The notes under the pieces are model-generated. The model had not been told where the DNA came from and made no database searches. It saw only the letters and a program-made list of their open reading frames with translations. From Patescibacteria group bacterium (GTDB lineage: Bacteria; Patescibacteriota; Minisyncoccia; RBG-13-40-8-A): a stretch of 64,000 nucleotides of DNA. Of this stretch, positions 3,885 to 41,943 are shown one piece after another. The translations under genes were made by a program, and so were the position numbers. The DNA lies in assembly GCA_018897295.1 (NCBI GenBank), contig JAHILA010000009.1, positions 3,154 through 67,153 of the forward strand. The letters run 5' to 3'. Within the stretch, counting starts at the first letter, position 1; each line of letters begins with the position of its first letter.

Positions 3885-4885
3885 ATAATTTTCGCTTCGC
3901 GCTCCAAGAGCTCAAAGACTTTTTCATTTATTAATATATTCTCAGTATACTCTTTAAAAACCACTAAATCAATATTCCCGCCCTCTGGCGGGATCCCGCC
4001 CGACGGCGGGACCTTAACATTATAACGCGTTAATTCCTGATCCATCCTTTCCTCGATTTCCTGTGTAGAGGGGAGGATTTTTTCTTTGTCAGCAATCGCT
4101 TTAATACATAATCCGATTTTCACTCTCTTTCCTGCCTGTTCTCTCCATCCCTTTTTTAACTCATCAGCTGTTGCCTTGATCTGCGTTAAATAAGCCTCAA
4201 AATCCATTCCAAATTGGTCAATATTCATTTTAAACTCATTAACCATATTCTCCAGTTCTTTTTCAATCAGTTCTTCGGGCGCTTCGATTTTTGAATTTTC
4301 GACAACTTTTTCTATCAATTCAATTCTGATTCTTTGTTTCTCCACGATTTCTTTCTCCTGCATCAATCCCTGTTCAATATTCTTTTTCAGCGCTTCCAAA
4401 GAATCGAATTTCCCAAATGATTTTACGAATTCATCATTGATTTCCGGCAATTGTCTTTCCTGCACAAGGTTCATTTTTATCTTAAAATTTAGATTTTTGC
4501 CTGCAATATTTTTATTGCCCCAATCTTCTGGAACTTTCAATAAAAATTCTTTTTCTTCGCCAGCTTTCATTCCTTCCAACTCTTTTTCAAAGCCGGGTAA
4601 GAATCGGCCTTCGCCTATAATTAATGGATGATTTTTGCTTACACCATTCTCTATCTGTACTCCACCTATCCTTGTTTCAAAATCAATTTCCACCCGATTG
4701 CCTTCTTGCGCGGGTTTATTTATGGTAATGATTTTTGCCCTTGATTTTTGCAGATAATCTAAGGCATTAATAATTTCTTTCTCTTCAACTTTCAATTCTT
4801 GCTTCTTCGCTTCCAATCCTTTGTAATTTCCTAATTCAATTCTGATTCCATTTGTCATACCTGTCTCGCCGTAGTCCCGCAACAC
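3881..4885 (-). CDS. tig: Trigger factor lacking the N-terminal ribosome-binding domain (start uncertain, GTG at 4885 or ATG near 4858)
   Basis: Aligns to the PPIase and C-terminal domains of trigger factor ([24 protein letters not shown]). There is no room upstream for the ~110-aa N-domain, because the NUDIX gene ends 14 nt away. Confidence 0.75.
3977..4010. repeat. Two tandem GC-rich hairpins (CCCGCC-CTCT-GGCGGG and CCCGCC-CGAC-GGCGGG) in-frame inside tig
   Basis: Perfect 6-bp GC stems in an AT-rich coding region. They encode [11 protein letters not shown]. The same CCCGCC..GGCGGG hairpin recurs at 50437. Confidence 0.6.
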
Positions 4886-5301: not shown

Positions 5302-6595
5302 TGTCGTCCTTGCCATCCTTAGCTTTAGCGAGAGAGGGTTTCTTGGTTTTAGATTTTTTTTCTTTTTTCGGTTTCTCGTCCTCTTCTTTTTTGTCCGCAT
5401 CTTCCATCATTTTTTCACTCTTCACATCAATTTTCCAGCCAGTCAATTTGGCTGCCAATCTAACATTCTGTCCTCTTTGACCAATAGCTAAAGAAATTTG
5501 GTCTTCTGGAACAATTACCAGGGCTGTCCTTCTACTTTCATCTATTTTGACGTCAATGATTTTTGCGGGGGAAAGAGAATTAGCAATATATTTTTCTATA
5601 TTTTCGTTCCATTCAATAACATCTATTTTTTCTCCGCCCAATTCATTAATAACTGTCTGAATTCTACTTCCTTTCTGCCCAACACAGCTTCCAATCGGGT
5701 CAATTCCTTCTTCTTCTGTCCAAACCGCAATTTTGGTTCTTGAACCTGGTTCTCTGGCAATGGATTTTATCTGCACTGCGCCGGTTGAAATTTCCGGGAC
5801 TTCAATTGAGAATAATCTACTCACTAATTTAGGATAGGCGCGGGAAAGAATAATATCTGCGCCTTTCGGCGATTTTTCAACCTTTAAAATATATGACCTC
5901 AAACGCTGACCCATAAAAAACCTTTCTCCTGGAATCTGTTCTTCGGGAAATAAAACTCCTACCGCTTTACCGATGTCCAAAAATATATTTCTGCCTTCGA
6001 TTCTTTGGACAATTGCGCTCACGATTTCTCCTTCTTTGTCTTTGTATTCCTCAAAAATGACTTCTCTTTCTGCTTCTCTTAATCGCTGGATAATAACCTG
6101 TTTGGCTGTTTGCGCAGCGATTCTTCCAAAGTCAGTATGTGTTTCGAGTTTTGTCTGAATTTCGTCTTCAATTTTTGCGTTTTTCTTAATTTTCTGGGCA
6201 TCCTCCAACATTATATGTTTATATGGATTAAATCTAATTTTTTTATTGCCATCTTCATCTTTCCCGACGTCTTCCCCTAGTGGAGTCGGGACTCCGACCT
6301 CGCCTTCGGCGAGCGTCGGAGCTTCTTCTTCAATTTTGCCTTCTTTGTCTTTCTTTAGCATGCTCTCATCCACAACTAAAAAAACCTGGAAAACTTTTAT
6401 TTCCCCAGTTTTTATATCAAATTTAACTTTGATATTCTGGCCTTTTTTGCCATAATCCTTTTTGTATGCAGCAGCAATCGCCATTTCAAGGGTCTCGACG
6501 ATCTGTTCCTGAGAAATGCCTTTTTCCTCGGCAATCTGGCTCATTGCTGAAATAAATTGTTTTTGATCCATAGATTTAATGAAAGGCCCGACCAA
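5288..6595 (-). CDS. nusA: Transcription termination/antitermination factor NusA
   Basis: N-terminal domain, S1 and tandem KH domains recognisable. Lys/Glu-rich C-terminal tail. Confidence 0.85.
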   Translation of the reverse strand: MVGPFIKSMDQKQFISAMSQIAEEKGISQEQIVETLEMAIAAAYKKDYGKKGQNIKVKFDIKTGEIKVFQVFLVVDESMLKKDKEGKIEEEAPTLAEGEVGVPTPLGEDVGKDEDGNKKIRFNPYKHIMLEDAQKIKKNAKIEDEIQTKLETHTDFGRIAAQTAKQVIIQRLREAEREVIFEEYKDKEGEIVSAIVQRIEGRNIFLDIGKAVGVLFPEEQIPGERFFMGQRLRSYILKVEKSPKGADIILSRAYPKLVSRLFSIEVPEISTGAVQIKSIAREPGSRTKIAVWTEEEGIDPIGSCVGQKGSRIQTVINELGGEKIDVIEWNENIEKYIANSLSPAKIIDVKIDESRRTALVIVPEDQISLAIGQRGQNVRLAAKLTGWKIDVKSEKMMEDADKKEEDEKPKKEKKSKTKKPSLAKAKDGKDDNEKS

Positions 6596-6647: not shown

Positions 6648-7097
6648 TCAATACATATCACCAACTGCATTTTCTGTATGGCGAATATCATATGAGCCGT
6701 TGCGATAAACTTCTACTGCCAGAATATCAATTTGCCACGAACTATCAAACAATCTATGTTTGCTTAAATAAATTTGTGATAATTTGATTAATTTTTTCTG
6801 CTTAGCGTAAGTAATATTGTCTTCTGGCCAAAATCCGCCAGGCCCAGTTTTATTGCGCGTTTTTACCTCAATAAAAACAATGTCGTTCCTGCCCGCAACG
6901 CCAGCAACCTGCCCGCTCGCAAGCTCGCGTTGCAGGCGGGGCTGGCTTGCGTGGCGGGCGGGTTTCTCTGCAATAATATCCAATTCTCCCAGTTTGCTGT
7001 ATCTGAAATTCTTATCTAAAATTTTATATCCTTTTCTTTTTAAATATTCTCTGGCAATTTTTTCTCCCAAATCGCCTAAATCTTTTCTCTCGCACAT
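6648..7097 (-). CDS. YraN-family (UPF0102) endonuclease carrying an in-frame ~26-aa GC-rich insertion
   Basis: Conserved GYKILDKNFR...GELDIIA and IVFIEVKTR blocks are separated by PARHASQPRLQRELASGQVAGVAGRND. That insert is encoded by a ~80-bp, ~75% GC block. Confidence 0.7.
   Translation of the reverse strand: MCERKDLGDLGEKIAREYLKRKGYKILDKNFRYSKLGELDIIAEKPARHASQPRLQRELASGQVAGVAGRNDIVFIEVKTRNKTGPGGFWPEDNITYAKQKKLIKLSQIYLSKHRLFDSSWQIDILAVEVYRNGSYDIRHTENAVGDMY
6886..6966. repeat. GC-rich element (CCTGCCCGC x2 ... GCGGGCGGG) inserted in-frame in yraN
   Basis: Sharp GC island in an AT-rich gene. It shares the CCTGCCCGC / GCGGGCGGG(G) motifs with elements at 8150-8206 and 37268-37391. Confidence 0.7.
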
Positions 7098-7099
7098 TT

Positions 7100-7933
7100 T
7101 TATTCTTTCTCGTTTAATTTCTCAACTATATTTTCTGCTTTTGCCAATCCTTCCTCGCTACCAATATCAGTCCATAAACCGCGGTGGACAAATGCCAATA
7201 ATTGTTTTTTCTCTGCCAGCAGCGGAAAAATACATTCTTCAATGGCAAATGCCTCGCCTTCTTTCTTGGCGCGTATACATTTTGTCTGTAAAAGCTGCGG
7301 AGACAAAACATAAAAACCAGCATTAACATATCCAGAATATTGATATTCCGGATCTTCTTGGAATTCCACTACGCGATTATTCTTGGTCTTAACCAAACCC
7401 ATGCCTTTGACATTTTGATCATAATAAACTGCCATTGCGCCCAAAATTTCTTCATATGAAACCCTTTTTCTTAAAGGAGAGATTCCCGAGGTAATACTTC
7501 TCACAAATGATGAAGAAGAAAAGAATTTCGGTTCTGAAACATTGGTTTTATAAAATTTAATAAAGTTATTCAGGTCGAAATTACTTAAAGTATCGCCGTT
7601 CATTATTAAAAAATCCTTTTTCAAATCTTTGGAAGCTGACATTATTGCTCCTCCTGTTCCCAATGGTTTTGTTTCGACAACATATTCAATTCCCGCCACT
7701 TTTCCTATTTTTTTAGAAATATTTGCTTTTGGATCTTTGATTTTCAGATATTTTAAAATCTCTTCTGCTTTATAGTGGAGACTCAAACAGATATCATCAA
7801 ATTTATATTTTTTCAATAAATCCAATTGATATTCCAATAATGGTTTCCCTTTTATTTTAATCAGGGATTTGGGTATATTTTTCAATTTTCCAGGCAGGTC
7901 GGTTTTACCTCCTGCCAAAATAATGACTTTCAC
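7100..7933 (-). CDS. Sugar-phosphate nucleotidyltransferase (NTP_transferase family, RmlA/GlmU/ManC-like). GTG start.
   Basis: N-terminal MKVIILAGGKTDLPGKL...KPLL signature of nucleotidyl transferases. Confidence 0.7.
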   Translation of the reverse strand: MKVIILAGGKTDLPGKLKNIPKSLIKIKGKPLLEYQLDLLKKYKFDDICLSLHYKAEEILKYLKIKDPKANISKKIGKVAGIEYVVETKPLGTGGAIMSASKDLKKDFLIMNGDTLSNFDLNNFIKFYKTNVSEPKFFSSSSFVRSITSGISPLRKRVSYEEILGAMAVYYDQNVKGMGLVKTKNNRVVEFQEDPEYQYSGYVNAGFYVLSPQLLQTKCIRAKKEGEAFAIEECIFPLLAEKKQLLAFVHRGLWTDIGSEEGLAKAENIVEKLNEKE

Positions 7934-8149: not shown

Positions 8150-8206
8150 AATCCCTGCCCGCCAAAGCTGCACTTGGCGCTGCGGGCGGGGAACTCGCGT
8201 CTCAAT
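8150..8206. repeat. GC-rich imperfect long hairpin (CCTGCCCGCC...GCGGGCGGGG) immediately 3' of tRNA-Ala
   Basis: Same motif family as the yraN insert. On the minus strand: GCGAG-TT-CCCCGCCCGCAG-[CGCCAA-GTGCAGCT-TTGGCG]-GGCAGGGATT-CTCGC. Confidence 0.6.
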
Positions 8207-22429: not shown

Positions 22430-22572
22430 GGGGCACCCACGGGGCACCCAGATTCGAACTGGGACTACTGACTCCCCGCCTGCCAACGCCTGAGCTTTTC
22501 GGACTGCCGAGATTTGCACTCGGGCTAAATCCTCCCGAAGGACTCGTGCTACTATTACACTACAGCCCGGAT
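22430..22572 (-). other. tRNA-like structured element or remnant in the glmS 5' region
   Basis: Minus strand shows a D-arm-like TAGTGTAATAGTAGCAC, an anticodon-like stem-loop AGTCC-TTCGGGA-GGATT (CGG), and a canonical T-arm CCCAG-TTCGAAT-CTGGG. The acceptor strands (CGGGCTG vs TGCCCCG) do not pair. About 60 nt of GC hairpins sit between the anticodon arm and T-arm. An 11-bp tandem duplication GGGTGCCCCGT occurs at the 3' end. Confidence 0.4.
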
Positions 22573-24260: not shown

Positions 24261-25721
24261 TTATTTTATCCAATGTTTTTCTCTGATTTTTAAATCCTCT
24301 TCTTCTTTTTTTTCTTCAATCTTCCCTCTGGCCAATTTACGCAAAACTTCGAGATTTTGTTCGTTTAATTCTTTAACCCTGTTTTCCAAGTATTTTTTAT
24401 TATTCTTTTTCGGGTCTTCGATTACCTCTGCCAATAAAACATCCAAAATCGCGCCAACCTTGGGACTGGGCTGGATTGATAATAATTTCATTATATCATT
24501 GCCATTGATTTTCAACATCTTGACGGAAATCGGATCTTTGGAAACTTTTTCAATCATATATTCAATTGTTCTTAAGCGATACGGTTTTTCTTTTGGCCTG
24601 CCCATTCCAAGACGATCCGCCACCCTTAAATTAATTAAATCACTAATATTTTCTGTGCCGACTCTTTTAATTAATCTCCTCGCGCCAGCGTCGGTCAGCC
24701 GTTCCGGGTCTGAAACAAACATATGATTTTTAACCAGCAAAACCACTTTATCAATAAATTTATTCGGAAATTTTAATCTTTGTAAAATCTTAAAAGTGAA
24801 TTTAGCGCCAATATAATCGTGATTGTAAAAAGTAGAATCAGGGCCTTCGCCTGCTTTTGCCACTGGTTTGCCGATATCATGAAATAATGCAGCGACTTTT
24901 ACTTCTAAATTGAATTTCTTTTTCGAGGCCTCGTCCAAAGAGCGCATTGAATGCTCATAAATATCATAAATATGATGTTTGTTCTGGCTTACGCCCACGC
25001 CTTTTTCTAGTTCCAGTAGAATATATTTCAATAAATTTGCCTGTCTTAATAAATCAATTCCGTGGGCTGCTTTTTCGGTTTCAAAAATCTTAATTAATTC
25101 ATCCCTAATTCTTTCGTTGGAAATCATCTGAATCCAATCGGCATTTTTCTGAATTGCTTTAAAAGTTTTTTCTTCAACAGAGAAACCCAGGGTGCAAGCG
25201 AAGCGCACTGCTCTTAACATTCTTAATGCATCCTCGCTAAATCTTTCATCTGCTTTGCCCACGGTGCGAATAATTTTATTCTTCAAATCCTTTTGTCCGT
25301 CAAAATAATCAACAATCTTTTTATCTTTGTTTAATGCAAGCGCATTAATTGTAAAATCTCTCCTGCCCAAATCTTCTTCTAATGTTTTGGCAAAAGTTAT
25401 TTCATCCGGATGGCGCTTATCAGAGTATTTACCTTCCAGTCTGAATGGCGTGATTTCAACAACTTTTAAAGTTTCATCTTTGGCATTGGTAATCACGCTC
25501 ACTGTGCCGAATTTATTTTCATAAAAATTCTTGGGAAATAATTTCCTGATTTGTTCTGGTTTAGCATTGGTAGTAATGTCCCAATCTTTTGGCTTTTGAC
25601 CCAATAATAAATCCCTGACACACCCGCCAACAATATACACTTCGAAGCCCTGCCTCGACCCAGAGGGGCGGGTTTTCTCCAATTTTTCCAATATTAAATT
25701 AACTTCTTTTGGAATTATCAC
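24261..25721 (-). CDS. cca: CCA-adding tRNA nucleotidyltransferase with HD domain
   Basis: Pol-beta NT motif IVGGCVRDLLLG..DWD. HD motif HDIGKP. Confidence 0.85.
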   Translation of the reverse strand: MIIPKEVNLILEKLEKTRPSGSRQGFEVYIVGGCVRDLLLGQKPKDWDITTNAKPEQIRKLFPKNFYENKFGTVSVITNAKDETLKVVEITPFRLEGKYSDKRHPDEITFAKTLEEDLGRRDFTINALALNKDKKIVDYFDGQKDLKNKIIRTVGKADERFSEDALRMLRAVRFACTLGFSVEEKTFKAIQKNADWIQMISNERIRDELIKIFETEKAAHGIDLLRQANLLKYILLELEKGVGVSQNKHHIYDIYEHSMRSLDEASKKKFNLEVKVAALFHDIGKPVAKAGEGPDSTFYNHDYIGAKFTFKILQRLKFPNKFIDKVVLLVKNHMFVSDPERLTDAGARRLIKRVGTENISDLINLRVADRLGMGRPKEKPYRLRTIEYMIEKVSKDPISVKMLKINGNDIMKLLSIQPSPKVGAILDVLLAEVIEDPKKNNKKYLENRVKELNEQNLEVLRKLARGKIEEKKEEEDLKIREKHWIK

Positions 25722-37043: not shown

Positions 37044-37117
37044 TGGTACCCCCACAAGGAATCGAACCTTGGTCAATTGCTTAAAAGGCAACTGCTTTAC
37101 CATTAAGCTATGGGGGC
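37044..37117 (-). tRNA. tRNA-Lys(UUU), CCA encoded
   Basis: GCCCCCATAGCTTAATGGTAAAGCAGTTGCCTTTTAAGCAATTGACCAAGGTTCGATTCCTTGTGGGGGTACCA. Confidence 0.85.
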
Positions 37118-37170
37118 ATATTAAGTCCCGACGATTCTGTCGGGACCCCGACCACTTCGTGCGTCGGGGC
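37118..37170 (-). repeat. Duplicate of the tRNA-Lys 5' end (GCCCCCATAGC) fused to GC-rich hairpins (GTCCCGAC..GTCGGGAC, CCCCGAC..GTCGGGG)
   Basis: 12-nt copy of the tRNA 5' acceptor/D region, followed by two perfect 7-8 bp GC hairpins. Confidence 0.5.
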
Positions 37171-37221
37171 TATGGGGGCGTATTTAAAATAATAGATTTT
37201 AAAAAGCATTTAGTCAACTTA

Positions 37222-37413
37222 TGCGCGTGGGAGGACTCGAACCCCCAACCGTCTCCTTAAGAGGGAGCTGCCCCGCCCGCCTTGCTTCGCCGATTATATG
37301 CGCCCACCAGGACTCGAACCTGGGACAATCTCCTTAAGAGGGAGCTGCTCTACCAACTGAGCTATGGGCGCGTCAAGGCGAAGCGGGCAGGTCTACCATT
37401 GAGCTACACGCGC
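37222..37413 (-). tRNA. Interrupted tRNA-Lys(CUU): 5' part 37392-37413 and 3' part 37222-37271, separated by a 120-nt intervening segment that contains another tRNA
   Basis: The joined halves give a canonical 72-nt tRNA (GCGCGTG-TA-GCTC-AATGGTA-GAGC-A-GCTCC-CTCTTAA-GGAGA-CGGTT-GGGGG-TTCGAGT-CCTCC-CACGCGC-A) with a 7/7 acceptor pairing. The intervening segment begins and ends with complementary GC-rich arms. Confidence 0.55.
37299..37371 (-). tRNA. tRNA-Lys(CUU), intact, nested inside the interrupted copy
   Basis: GCGCCCATAGCTCAGTTGGTAGAGCAGCTCCCTCTTAAGGAGATTGTCCCAGGTTCGAGTCCTGGTGGGCGCA. Confidence 0.85.
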
Positions 37414-37441
37414 GCTTTTCAGTTAACCGAGTTTGACTCGG

Positions 37442-37513
37442 TGCCCTCGGCAGGATTCGAACCCGCAACTACGCGTCCGAAGCGCGTCGTGTTATCCGTT
37501 ATACCACGAGGGC
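37442..37513 (-). tRNA. tRNA-Arg(UCG)
   Basis: GCCCTCGTGGTATAACGGATAACACGACGCGCTTCGGACGCGTAGTTGCGGGTTCGAATCCTGCCGAGGGCA. Confidence 0.8.
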
Positions 37514-37770
37514 GACATTTTTATGTATCCGTCCGAAATTATCTTTTCTACATAATCTTTTCTTTTTAATTTTTTCAACCTTTGTTCTATCCATCTGGCA
37601 GTTTTTAAATTTGCGTATTCTTGCGAAAAAACTAATACAGGATTTTCCATCCGATTAGTAGTTTGAGTGTAGCCATGATCATGTTGTTTTATTCTTCTTA
37701 TTAAATTACTCGTGCTACCAATATAGAATTTATTATTTTCATCTTTAAGTATATAAACGTATGCTTTCAT
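37492..37770 (-). CDS. GIY-YIG nuclease family protein (YhbQ-like). The annotated 3' end overlaps tRNA-Arg by ~22 nt.
   Basis: YVYILKDENNKFYIGSTSNLIRRIKQH GIY-YIG motif. 92 aa. Confidence 0.6.
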   Translation of the reverse strand: MKAYVYILKDENNKFYIGSTSNLIRRIKQHDHGYTQTTNRMENPVLVFSQEYANLKTARWIEQRLKKLKRKDYVEKIISDGYIKMSPSWYNG

Positions 37771-37789
37771 AAATATCTGCTCCGACGCT

Positions 37790-37875
37790 CCGATTTTTAT
37801 GTCGGAGGTCGGAGCCCCGTACCCCCGACATTATGTCGGGGCGTCGGGGTTTCACCATAGGGGCGAAGAATTCAA
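37790..37875. repeat. Cluster of nested GC-rich hairpins (GCTCCGAC..GTCGGAGC, CCCCGACA-TTA-TGTCGGGG)
   Basis: Perfect 8-bp GC stems between the GIY-YIG gene and the small ORF at 37959. Confidence 0.5.
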
Positions 37876-39510: not shown

Positions 39511-40962
39511 ATGCTTACAAAAAAACAACAGCAAATATTGGAATATATTAAAAAATGCATAAAGAAAAATAACTACTCTCCTTCTCTTAAAGAAATAGCG
39601 AGACATTTTAAATTATCTTCTGCATCGGGCATTCATCAACACGTTGAAGCATTAAAATTAAAAGGGTATTTGAATAAATTTGAAAACCACCCACGAACAA
39701 TTCAAATTGAAAAACATGAAAGAATGATTAATATTCCAATATTGGGATTAATTGCAGCAGGACAACCGATAGAAGCAATTGAGGATAAAGAAACAATCGC
39801 CATTCCACAAAACAAAATTCCTCATTCCGGAAAATTTTACGCATTACGCGTAACCGGAAACAGTATGATTGACGAAAATATAAATGACAACGACATTATC
39901 TTGGTTAAACAACAAAATGTAGCCGAAAATGGACAAAAGATAGTGGGACTCATTGATAACAACGAAGCAACGTTAAAAAAATTCTATAAAGAAAAAAACT
40001 ATATTCGACTACAGCCAGCTAATAAAAATATGAGTCCGATTATTATTAATAAAAATCAAAATTTTAATATTCAAGGAGTAGTTGTTGATGTAATAAAAAA
40101 CGAACAAGATTTAACAGCCACTGAAACATTGCCAATTTCAAAAATTCAACAATACGACACATTGCCATTAAATGAAATTATTTGCGGTGATTGTGTTAAT
40201 GTCTTAAAAAAAATACCAGATAATTCAATTGATATGGTAATTACATCCCCCCCTTACGATAATGTTCGAACATATAATGGATTTAGTTTTAATTTACACG
40301 ACACGGGTAAAGAATTATTTCGCGTTCTTAAAGATGGCGGAATCGTAGCAATGGTTATACAAGATCAGACAAAAAACTTTGGTAAATCGCTCACGTCATT
40401 CAAGACCATTGTTGACTGGGTTGATAATATCGGATTTAAGCTTTTCGAGACTGTTATATATAAAAAACACGGCGCCGAAGGCGCGTGGTGGACAAAAAGA
40501 TTTCGAGTTGATCATGAATACATCCCTATTTTTCTTAAAGGAGAACGCCCGGCATATTTTAATAAAGAACCACTTAAAATTCCATCCAAACACGGAGGCA
40601 AAACCATGACCGGATGTGCTACACGACTAACTAATGGCAAAACATTAAAATCAAAAAAGGTCTTTATTAATCCAATGAAATGCAGGGGAACATTATGGGA
40701 TTATACTACATGTGGCGATGGCACTAAATTAAAACACCAACATCCTGCGACGTTTCCAGATAAAATTCCCTATGATCTTATACAATGTTTTTGTCCATTA
40801 AATGGCGTGGTATTGGATCCATTTGTGGGAAGTGGCACATCTGTATTGGCAGCCATCCAATTGAATAAAAATTATATTGGAATTGATATCTCTAAAGAAT
40901 ATTGTGATTTAACCAAAAAAAGAATCAAAGAAGAGGGATCAATTAATAGAAAATTATTTTAA
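39511..40962 (+). CDS. LexA-like repressor (winged HTH plus S24 peptidase) fused to a beta-class N6A/N4C DNA methyltransferase
   Basis: N-terminal ~200 aa carry a LexA-type HTH and S24 motifs (GNSM ... ILVKQQ). C-terminus carries ITSPPYDN (motif IV) before DPFVGSGTS (motif I). Confidence 0.65.
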   Translation: MLTKKQQQILEYIKKCIKKNNYSPSLKEIARHFKLSSASGIHQHVEALKLKGYLNKFENHPRTIQIEKHERMINIPILGLIAAGQPIEAIEDKETIAIPQNKIPHSGKFYALRVTGNSMIDENINDNDIILVKQQNVAENGQKIVGLIDNNEATLKKFYKEKNYIRLQPANKNMSPIIINKNQNFNIQGVVVDVIKNEQDLTATETLPISKIQQYDTLPLNEIICGDCVNVLKKIPDNSIDMVITSPPYDNVRTYNGFSFNLHDTGKELFRVLKDGGIVAMVIQDQTKNFGKSLTSFKTIVDWVDNIGFKLFETVIYKKHGAEGAWWTKRFRVDHEYIPIFLKGERPAYFNKEPLKIPSKHGGKTMTGCATRLTNGKTLKSKKVFINPMKCRGTLWDYTTCGDGTKLKHQHPATFPDKIPYDLIQCFCPLNGVVLDPFVGSGTSVLAAIQLNKNYIGIDISKEYCDLTKKRIKEEGSINRKLF

Positions 40963-41943
40963 TAATTTTCTATTGTCAATAGTATATTCTATCGCCAATC
41001 CACTAGTCATCGCCCAAGACAATGGATTTTTTTTAATCATAAATTCAAAATTTCTATTATTGGGCACAATATTTTCTTTTGTAAATTTATAAGTTTTAAA
41101 ATTAGACCATTGCCAATTTTTTGATACATATGTCCATTTTGTTAATTTAGACAACATTTTTAAAAATCTTTCCGACTTCTGTTTTTCTTCATCATTAATA
41201 CTGTAATAATTTTTCATTTTTATTATATTAACGAATTCCCCTTTAGAATTGGATATTTTGATTTTGTCGTTTCTTTTCTTGTTTTCACTTATATCACTAA
41301 TCTCAAGAAAAAAATCTTTTAACGCAATCATTAAATTGTGTATAGAGTAATGTTTATTCAAAAAGATTTTATTCAATTCATTTTCCCTTGATTCTGCGTT
41401 TAAATATTTTAACCAATCGATACAATTTTCCGGATATCCAAATAAATTTTTAAATACGCCATCCACATATAATAATGGACAAATTGCTGATTCGGGAATA
41501 GTAAATTTCTTTTTTGATCCTATTATTCCAATAAGCATATGTATTGTGGCTAATGGATATTTTAATTTAAAATTTTTATATCCATCATAATTTCTTAAAT
41601 TATTGGGTTGTATACAATTTTTAAAATTATCCCAATTTAATGGTCGTTTATTTTTATTAAATTGAACCATGTGATGCCCGATGCTTCGTATATTTTTTCT
41701 GAAAATTTCCATATCCAAAAATATGCAATCTCTAACGGAAATATTGTTATCCAACAACATCACTTTTCCGTCATAAAATCCTCTTATCTTCCAACCTAAA
41801 AAATGAGACATAAATAAACCGCATAGTAAACCATCTGCGTCTGGACTCAAAATACAATCGTGATTTTTCTCTAATATCCACGGATGATCTAAAATAATTT
41901 TTCGATAATCAATTTTTTCTATCATGTTTTTATAATACATCAC
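40954..41943 (-). CDS. Hypothetical protein, a candidate cognate restriction endonuclease convergent with the methyltransferase
   Basis: ORF only. Convergent and overlapping arrangement with the MTase gene. Confidence 0.3.
   Translation of the reverse strand: MMYYKNMIEKIDYRKIILDHPWILEKNHDCILSPDADGLLCGLFMSHFLGWKIRGFYDGKVMLLDNNISVRDCIFLDMEIFRKNIRSIGHHMVQFNKNKRPLNWDNFKNCIQPNNLRNYDGYKNFKLKYPLATIHMLIGIIGSKKKFTIPESAICPLLYVDGVFKNLFGYPENCIDWLKYLNAESRENELNKIFLNKHYSIHNLMIALKDFFLEISDISENKKRNDKIKISNSKGEFVNIIKMKNYYSINDEEKQKSERFLKMLSKLTKWTYVSKNWQWSNFKTYKFTKENIVPNNRNFEFMIKKNPLSWAMTSGLAIEYTIDNRKLLK

Follow-up and report, generated by a model that had tools for sequence, protein, structure and literature searches.

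The window analysed here is the whole 64-kb stretch of contig JAHILA010000009.1, from a Patescibacteria (Candidate Phyla Radiation, CPR) bacterium of about 35% G+C. Its minus strand carries a small tRNA operon in the order Arg, an interrupted tRNA-Lys(CUU) (gene A) with a second tRNA-Lys(CUU) (gene B) nested inside it, and Lys(UUU). All coordinates at the nest are given in the direction of transcription on the minus strand. The 5′ piece of A (A5′, 37413..37392) comprises nt 1–22 of a tRNA-Lys(CUU) of type A, GCGCGTGTAGCTCAATGGTAGA, read directly from the sequence; it spans the acceptor 5′ strand, the D-stem 5′ strand, the D-loop and the first two bases of the D-stem 3′ strand. Flush with the break in A follows the left hairpin arm CCTGCCCGCTTCGCC (37391..37377), assigned from sequence and fold, and then a 5-nt leader, TTGAC (37376..37372), which connects the arm to B. 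B is a complete 73-nt tRNA-Lys(CUU) (37371..37299) recognised by ARAGORN and by the Rfam tRNA model (69 bits); CCA is not encoded in the gene. The segment GCCTTGAC followed by the 5′ end of a tRNA-Lys is also present in the comparison locus L123. Downstream of B, a 7-nt trailer, TATAATC, and the right arm GGCGAAGCAAGGCGGGCGGG (together 37298..37272) end flush at the break in A, and the remaining 50 nt of A (A3′, 37271..37222), nt 23–72 of type A, GCAGCTCCCTCTTAAGGAGACGGTTGGGGGTTCGAGTCCTCCCACGCGCA, are identified by tRNA profiles. The interruption measures 120 nt and is sited between nt 22 and 23 of A, in the D-stem 3′ strand. An initial annotation, made from the sequence alone, had proposed this layout of two halves of A with an arm–B–arm segment between them, and our re-reading of the minus strand agrees with it to the base.

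When joined, the two halves give a canonical 72-nt tRNA-Lys(CUU) with a 7/7 paired acceptor stem (ARAGORN on the joined sequence), as had been described. The further claim that the arms are mutually complementary and form a helix starting at both junctions also holds, with the arm helix running from the first to the last inserted base in the minimum-energy fold. In this fold one cloverleaf is nested in another, and an unbroken helix of 9+6 bp has both junctions at its flush end. On the locus as it stands, ARAGORN and Rfam report the inner gene B only; A3′ alone scores 44 bits (E 2e-12) with a tRNA-Lys profile and 25 bits with the Rfam tRNA model. Folded as DNA, the insert is unusually stable (z = -3.2; 0 of 200 shuffles equally stable). 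The whole 206-nt region folded as RNA has no stability beyond that of shuffled sequences (z = -1.2), so the fold energy of the full precursor is no evidence by itself. Searches of the insert and its surroundings against Rfam, at the gathering threshold and with E up to 10, return tRNAs only, and matches to a plastid-ycf2 family proved to be antisense tRNAs. A and B are 78% identical, with identical blocks of 20 and 26 nt in common; this low identity rules out B as a simple tandem duplicate of A.

Two metagenome contigs, L011 and L056, are syntenic with the window, with proteins 70–85% identical on both sides of the cluster. The initial annotation had suggested comparing the locus in related genomes, and both relatives have an uninterrupted tRNA-Lys(CUU) between tRNA-Arg and tRNA-Lys(UUU). 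The L011 gene shares the acceptor stem (GCGCGTG, 7/7) and variable loop of A, and the differences in the T-stem are compensatory. Among 113 tRNA-Lys(CUU) genes, the acceptor GCGCGTG is found on one other contig only (L011, fetched twice). B is 94–95% identical to the tRNA-Lys(CUU) of other Patescibacteria contigs (L022 and L014). A similar pair of types exists for tRNA-Arg. The start of the L011 tRNA-Arg, GCTCCTATGGTGAAA, matches at 14 of 15 positions a 15-nt remnant of an older tRNA-Arg, GCCCCTATGGTGAAA (37864..37850, minus), upstream of the GIY-YIG nuclease gene in the window, and the intact tRNA-Arg(UCG) (37513..37440, minus), 27 nt upstream of A, is of the 'new' type seen in L056. From the gene types of the relatives we infer that A and the Arg remnant are the old genes of the lineage and that B and the present tRNA-Arg are later arrivals. 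L011 also has two copies of tRNA-Lys(UUU) in which 8 nt (the D-stem 3′ and anticodon-stem 5′ strands) are replaced by the hairpin TCCGTCGGCTGACGGA; one adjoins the intact gene and the other is truncated by a GIY-YIG gene.

The same arrangement, identical in sequence, is found in GCA_018895295.1 (JAHION010000027.1), in an independent Logan assembly of SRR11548473 and in a contig of GCA_022013755.1. The initial annotation had advised a check of the assemblies for repeat collapse; the three agree and no collapse is seen. An artefact, by repeat collapse or by a chimeric join of two tRNA-Lys genes, might be suspected, since the source data are short-read metagenome assemblies, A and B have the two identical blocks, and in one of the three contigs a chimeric switch follows a few bases further on. 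Three assemblies give an identical sequence, however, and all four junctions are unique sequence far longer than the blocks common to A and B, so that repeat collapse is unable to create the arrangement. The same architecture also occurs on a 455-kb contig of another organism (L005, described below). We regard an artefact as extremely improbable. The chimeric contig (L130; GCA_022013755.1, JAKLPU010000123.1) matches the window for 2010 nt and then continues as unrelated GC-rich sequence inside A3′. The switch point is about 29 nt into A3′ and leaves the junctions unaffected; it probably reflects chimeric joining at the tRNA. The contig JAHION010000027.1 stops at window position 41304, and the synteny with L011 runs on past that point.

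The two arms of the insert belong to a family of GC-rich hairpins dispersed through the window, with which they share the termini CCTGCCCGC...GCGGGCGGG. Allowing up to one mismatch, the window has 15 occurrences of the terminus CCTGCCCGC where 3.3 are expected, and none of 100 shuffles reaches 15. The left-arm terminus is common to the copies at 6888 and 8154, the two sites, in yraN and next to tRNA-Ala, that had already been assigned to the arm family and are confirmed here with the same termini. The yraN copy is 75 nt long (6888..6962, plus) and lies in frame (25 amino acids) in the gene (UPF0102), with the insert defined by comparison with the Pfam UPF0102 profile and PDB 3fov; a second copy is nested in its loop. 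The copy at tRNA-Ala(CGC) is 39 nt long (8153..8191, plus; z = -5.1), 17 nt downstream of the tRNA and in the opposite orientation to it. A conserved T.G asymmetry is the same in all family copies, and the inner stems vary yet pair (TTCGCC/GGCGAA, CAAAG/CTTGG, CCAGC/GCTGG). Beside tRNA-Pro(CGG), the right-hand half of the architecture is present (22440..22490, minus). There the order is the tRNA, 8 nt, the arm GGCGTTGGCAGGCGGGG (22474-22490), and a T-arm plus acceptor 3′ fragment of a different, older tRNA. This arm is identical to the one flanking tRNA-Lys in L088, and the site looks like half of another nested cassette. Related arms occur outside the window in L005, L002, L088, L042 and L109. 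The family thus has several dispersed copies with conserved inverted termini and shows presence or absence at orthologous sites (L011, L056), as miniature palindromic elements do. A second family, of CCCCGAC..GTCGGGG double hairpins, lies in frame in NusA (60 nt, 6262-6321) and in trigger factor (36 nt, 3976-4011); the NusA hairpin falls within a 46-amino-acid segment absent from the Thermotoga NusA structure. The lengths of the intragenic hairpins (75, 60 and 36 nt) are all multiples of three, so they are translated into protein and not removed from the RNA there.

A scan of metagenome contigs with the 20-mer that A and B share in the anticodon arm gave 120 loci. All 120 have an intact gene at the match, and none contains a second copy of the exact junction between A and its arm; a metagenome contig scan with the A-type T-arm pattern gave 0 matches. 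A scan of genome contigs with the 3′ 22-mer of A found only tRNA-Ile(GAU) genes, in five CPR metagenome-assembled genomes (MAGs), and no tRNA-Lys; it was the chance route to two further nests, L005 and L002. In L005 (Falkowbacteria, 455-kb contig; 900-1150, minus) the segment that splits a tRNA-Gly(UCC) at 35|36 begins with CCCGCCTGCC, contains a complete tRNA-Gly and ends with GGCGGGCAGG. Along with the gene, the cargo brings some 30 nt from its own promoter region and some 25 nt from downstream, and the outer tRNA-Gly is 97% identical to the inner one and has a C31.T39 mismatch. In L002 (Saccharibacteria MAG; 1500-1940, minus) a tRNA-Ile(GAU) is nested at least twice. Both the outermost gene, a type-1 tRNA-Ile with the same sequence as the intact one in L001, and a type-2 gene are split at 35|36, with the same arms at both splits, around an intact type-2 tRNA-Ile. 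The L002 arm GGCGAAGTCAAGGCGGGCGGG matches the right arm of the window at 20 of 21 positions. If the assembly is real, L002 would represent re-insertion into the cargo copy.

Among the tRNA-Lys loci, four (L123, L074, L042 and L109) carry, within the pieces of an older tRNA-Lys, an intact tRNA-Lys(CUU) whose flanks are complementary. The outer copy of L123 is without an anticodon arm and has a T-stem mismatch; that of L074 is mismatched in the acceptor and has received three more hairpins; those of L042 and L109 are decayed too. The flank–flank pairing energies of these loci are -25 to -42 kcal/mol, against a median of -13 kcal/mol (106 loci). Break points recur after nt 11 (ATAGC|CCCG, four loci), after nt 15, after nt 22-23 (GGTAGA|, at least five loci) and at 35|36. 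The outer copies range from flawless (window, L002) through slightly damaged (L005) to ruined, as neutral decay after insertion predicts. Elsewhere in L005 (3200-3290, minus) a tRNA-Ile 5′ fragment with a hairpin in the D-loop lies upstream of an intact tRNA-Ile.

We conclude that the resident tRNA-Lys(CUU), A, has probably been interrupted recently by a 120-bp hairpin cassette that brought the replacement tRNA B, and that A is probably a young pseudogene. The initial annotation had left two readings side by side, a GC-element-mediated insertion into one tRNA copy and an archaeal-type intron or split tRNA. The former is supported by the uninterrupted gene in the relatives, the dispersed arm family and the recurring nests with decaying outer copies; the latter is not, for the reasons given below. 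On the preferred account B would be transcribed with the operon, freed by RNase P and 3′ processing, and completed by the CCA-adding enzyme, the gene for which is at 24261-25721 of the window. tRNA-Lys(UUU) and B cover both lysine codons, so A is not needed; B would be the expressed gene and A would not be expressed. The cassette would owe its persistence to replacing the gene that it broke, and it would be mobile as a unit. A little less firmly, we lean towards seeing such cassettes as a family of tRNA-targeting mini-elements, not described before, in which a spare tRNA makes up for the damage done. The window may then exemplify a wider process in Patescibacteria, in which hairpin-bounded elements, including a module of double hairpin and GIY-YIG nuclease, would enter tRNA loops and stem ends and persist by bringing a working copy of the disrupted tRNA or regenerating it by duplication. 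The insertions fall in loops and stem ends of hairpins and cloverleaves, which suggests recognition of folded DNA. Insertion might begin when hairpin or cloverleaf DNA is cut in a structure-directed manner and a donor is then copied, possibly with help from the GIY-YIG nuclease. Candidate routes are repair of a break from a cassette-bearing donor (homing), movement in trans of an element like a miniature inverted-repeat transposable element, and a two-step process in which a hairpin comes first and a rescue copy is then placed in its loop; the L005 cargo, which has its own promoter, suits the last of these.

Several observations weigh against the insertion of a mobile cassette. The halves of A are flawless and the helix joins them perfectly; a processed intervening sequence would look alike. 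Recency of the insertion would explain the flawless halves. There is no transposase, integrase or nuclease within the 120 bp, and no target-site duplication around the three full copies of the hairpin family. The whole arm–B–arm unit was not found in a second context, so that its mobility as a unit is argued from the parallel cases with different tRNAs. For L002, the nest was read from a partly masked co-assembly of short reads, and the comparison loci were found via a tRNA-Lys pattern, which biases their frequencies.

The nearest candidate for an enzyme is encoded in the same tRNA operon, 79 nt upstream; the 120-bp insert itself is without a nuclease gene. This free-standing GIY-YIG nuclease gene (37770..37492, minus; Pfam PF01541, E 1e-12) specifies 92 amino acids, the catalytic domain only, and its 3′ end overlaps tRNA-Arg. 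Between it and the Arg remnant is a double (nested) GC hairpin (37849..37780, minus; z = -7.8), and a promoter-like site (37908-37880, minus) lies just upstream of the remnant. The protein has hundreds of homologues in Patescibacteria. Contexts were fetched for six further homologue families, and with the window all seven show the same module order: tRNA nt 1-15, a double hairpin, an open reading frame (ORF) for a GIY-YIG protein of about 87 amino acids, and a complete tRNA (window 37492-37864, minus; L131-L134, L136/L138, L145-L148, L155, L158 and L159). Six families have tRNA-Arg and one has tRNA-Phe, and the insertion is at D-loop 15|16. The end of the ORF often overlaps the tRNA; one direct repeat is 20 nt long, leader included. 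Among the close relatives the site of the GIY-YIG gene is tRNA-Arg in the window and tRNA-Lys(UUU) in L011, and the gene is absent from L056. We take the module to be mobile, apparently using the tRNA promoter and restoring the tRNA downstream, much like free-standing homing-endonuclease genes such as T4 segB (PMC2330249). In L054 a GIY-YIG gene and a tRNA-Lys(CUU) lie together inside another tRNA. The link of the module to the A/B nest is circumstantial, because the hairpin family and the site differ from those of the cassette in A. L054 also has a tRNA called with the anticodon UUA ('tRNA-Stop') and an unusual anticodon loop (6954-7028 and 7355-7420, minus); its truncated copy lies upstream of a pair of GIY-YIG gene and tRNA-Lys(CUU).

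One rival explanation is a functional intervening sequence, in which A and B would both be obtained from one transcript, either by removal of the 120 nt or by excision of B (RNase P, RNase Z) with the helix holding the pieces of A together; this would amount to a novel kind of bacterial tRNA intron, unlike the archaeal one, or to a tRNA in two pieces. An analogue is offered by the intervening sequences that RNase III excises from bacterial 23S rRNA, and the base of the extended helix here coincides with the insertion point in the same manner. The perfect halves of A and the position of the helix, exactly at both junctions, speak for it, and related arms sit at the junctions of the split tRNA-Gly and tRNA-Ile in other classes. 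Patescibacteria are also unusually rich in tRNA introns, including at 35/36 (PMC13011429). Against this, the insert has no bulge-helix-bulge and no group I or group II core, and the arm family is not removed from RNA where it lies in frame in yraN, as the double hairpins are not in NusA and trigger factor. Outer copies carry disabling changes (L005 C31.T39; L123, L074, L109), the relatives have a plain gene, a tRNA split at 35|36 is unable to decode without exact ligation, and the lysine codons are already covered by tRNA-Lys(UUU) and B. We therefore consider a functional intervening sequence very unlikely. Its broader form, a new class of bacterial intervening sequence in which the GC helix marks the cuts, each precursor yields two nested tRNAs and the same system operates at 35/36 elsewhere, appears more unlikely still. 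The archaeal-type intron or split tRNA envisaged earlier is not supported: the host is bacterial, the helix is flush and continuous without 3-nt bulges, hairpins are kept in coding genes and outer copies are disabled. An archaeal bulge-helix-bulge motif would have a 4-bp helix with a 3-nt bulge on either side, each holding one splice site. Neither the tRNA splicing endonuclease (EndA) nor RtcB ligase is among the 22 window proteins scanned against Pfam (64 kb of genome). The likeness to archaeal non-canonical introns and split or permuted tRNAs (PMC4090602, PMC3218864, PMC3293823) lies in a break outside the anticodon loop and a GC-rich helix that juxtaposes the exon ends, and for archaeal tRNA disruption, too, a link to mobile elements has been proposed in these papers. 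Unlike the archaeal cases, the window has a complete tRNA inside the break, and in related cases the outer copies are decaying.

Two other accounts concern how the insert arrived. Homing driven by a GIY-YIG enzyme, a mechanism within the explanation we favour, would have A cut and repaired from a donor with arm–B–arm in its tRNA-Lys; the cassette would remain unspliced and carry the spare tRNA, and the enzyme, or a relative, would act in trans. The GIY-YIG gene 79 nt upstream in the same operon, its polymorphic position among the relatives, and the constant module in seven of seven homologue families point this way, as do the recurrence of the L002 insertion at the same site of the cargo copy and the recurrence of break points after nt 11, 15 and 22. 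Phage T4 SegB, a GIY-YIG homing endonuclease in a tRNA cluster, is a precedent (PMC2330249). The protein, however, has no DNA-binding domain for site specificity, its nuclease activity and target are putative, the GIY-YIG modules differ from the cassette in A in both hairpins (CCCCGAC type) and site (15|16), and no GIY-YIG gene is seen beside the L005 and L002 nests, the stored flanks of which were not exhaustively searched. We hold homing to be possible but doubtful. Alternatively there may be no mobile cassette: a hairpin or a break in A might have been followed by error-prone repair in which template switching copied a paralogous tRNA-Lys with short flanks into the loop, with selection keeping the product. 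The L005 cargo, with its own promoter and downstream nucleotides, indicates an inner copy from the same locus; disrupted tRNA copies with a hairpin only exist (L011 copy iv, L091, L056); part of the L056 hairpin repeats the neighbouring D-loop in inverted orientation, a fold-back signature; and one hairpin often sits in the loop of another. B, on the other hand, is of a type unlike A and the genes of both relatives, which requires a foreign donor, the arms are conserved between distant lineages, and at both flush junctions target bases are neither lost nor gained. We consider template switching without a mobile cassette unlikely. An integrase-mediated island at the tRNA was also considered and rejected: there is no integrase in the insert or in the adjacent 11-kb island, and the duplication is nested rather than 3′-terminal.

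One of the closest known systems is the free-standing homing-endonuclease cassette that takes along part of its target gene, as with phage T4 SegB in its tRNA cluster (PMC2330249). Paquin, Laforest and Lang (1994, 2000) reportedly described a mobile GIY-YIG ORF in Allomyces mitochondria with a foreign atp6 C-terminus and double-hairpin flanks. In common with such cassettes, the insertion is in or beside an essential gene, a donor copy preserves the function, the displaced piece of the original stays next to it, GC-rich (double) hairpins mark the junctions in an AT-rich genome, and a GIY-YIG gene lies in the same tRNA cluster. Unlike them, the 120 bp contain no ORF, a whole gene is carried, the target is neither lost nor duplicated, and the nuclease is a bare catalytic domain of putative activity. 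The arms also resemble palindromic miniature elements. Rickettsia palindromic elements are reported to insert into genes (Ogata et al. 2000). Like the Rickettsia elements, REP/BIME (PMC3733652) and the GC clusters of yeast mitochondria (PMC4478555), the hairpins are short, GC-rich and dispersed, with conserved ends, a variable interior and no coding capacity, and like palindromic miniature elements they lie in frame in protein genes (yraN, NusA and trigger factor here). None of these three families is known to bear a passenger tRNA gene or to lie nested in the same tRNA. Unlike REP elements the hairpins lack a GTAG/CGTC tag, and the scanned window proteins include no RAYT transposase.

Integrative elements that target tRNA genes rebuild the tRNA 3′ end from attP. 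The cassette is like them in having a tRNA as target, in restoring function by element-borne sequence and in leaving a displaced fragment; it is unlike them in having no integrase, in measuring 120 bp instead of kilobases and in nesting a whole gene instead of duplicating a 3′ end. Group I introns have a P1-P9 core and are typically longer than 200 nt. A group I intron was rejected for the window, where the insert is 120 nt long, of which 73 nt are tRNA, consists of hairpin plus tRNA without a core, has no match to Rfam Intron_gpI and sits in the D-stem, not the anticodon loop. Group I introns at 35/36 in Patescibacteria tRNA genes (PMC13011429) share with the cassettes the phylum, the failure of annotation tools to find the interrupted tRNAs and, for L002 and L005, the 35/36 site. 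That paper makes no mention of hairpin cassettes, nested tRNAs or GIY-YIG modules. Our literature search found no description of nested tRNA genes or GIY-YIG modules in Patescibacteria tRNAs; other matches were archaeal, algal and mitochondrial analogues only.

Selfish elements in essential genes, such as group I and II introns and inteins, normally splice out. For a 73-nt gene the cassettes appear to use a cheaper solution, a replacement copy. If this is true, it would partly explain the scrambled, unannotated tRNA loci of Patescibacteria and would open a way for tRNA genes to be replaced horizontally in reduced genomes. It would also supply concrete substrates for an enzyme that places GC hairpins in structured DNA, namely D-loop 15|16, D-stem 22|23 and anticodon loop 35|36. 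tRNA finders report the inner gene only, so that remnants and nested copies are missed, and the fragments may be mistaken for split genes. The main interest lies in the apparently undescribed cassette family; the locus itself would be a young pseudogene with its replacement.

The remainder of the cluster shows a similar pattern. Downstream of A3′ lie a second promoter-like site (37217-37189, minus) and a 16-nt copy, AATAC plus GCCCCCATAGC (37184..37169, minus), of the leader and first 11 nt of tRNA-Lys(UUU), which is a direct repeat of 37107-37122 (repeat family D9, 94%). An ORF-less double hairpin, CCCCGAC..GTCGGGG TCCCGAC..GTCGGGA (37169..37126, minus; z = -4.3), follows; base 37169 is common to both, as the last base of the 16-nt remnant or the first C of the hairpin. 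The intact tRNA-Lys(UUU) (37117..37044, minus) is the last gene of the cluster. Each of the three cluster tRNAs is preceded by a homologous tRNA remnant and then GC hairpins, and the whole cluster reads as one overwritten by newer copies. The remnant junction of tRNA-Lys(UUU), ATAGC|CCCG, recurs in L042, L109 and L123.

Fragmentary tRNAs also occur in the loci fetched. A fragment of the same tRNA lies within 350 nt in 80 of 366 distinct tRNA contexts. At L013, L037, L039, L066, L069, L072, L099, L115, L119 and others, the final 15-22 nt of the tRNA (Leu, Cys, Tyr or Lys) recur without a mismatch 100-170 nt downstream. Ahead of each such copy stand the T-arm in inverted form, a stem-loop about 45 nt long and one conserved motif, GTACTGAAC.TGTA or CCTGTACTGCTCC; the arrangement corresponds to no Rfam family.

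An archaeal origin of the window is ruled out by its bacterial genes (NusA, trigger factor, ClpP and a LexA-like protein) and by the source names. No transposase is present among the scanned proteins of the 64-kb window. Directly downstream of tRNA-Lys(UUU) is an island of about 11 kb (~25.7-36.9 kb) that is absent in the relatives L011 and L056. Like the 120-nt insert it has no integrase. It encodes an 889-amino-acid restriction-modification fusion (MmeI/Eco57I-like), HNH-like, SNase-domain and NYN-domain proteins, and several unknown proteins. On the other side of the cluster (39511-40962, plus), a LexA-like DNA-binding domain and S24 peptidase are fused to an N6/N4 DNA methyltransferase.

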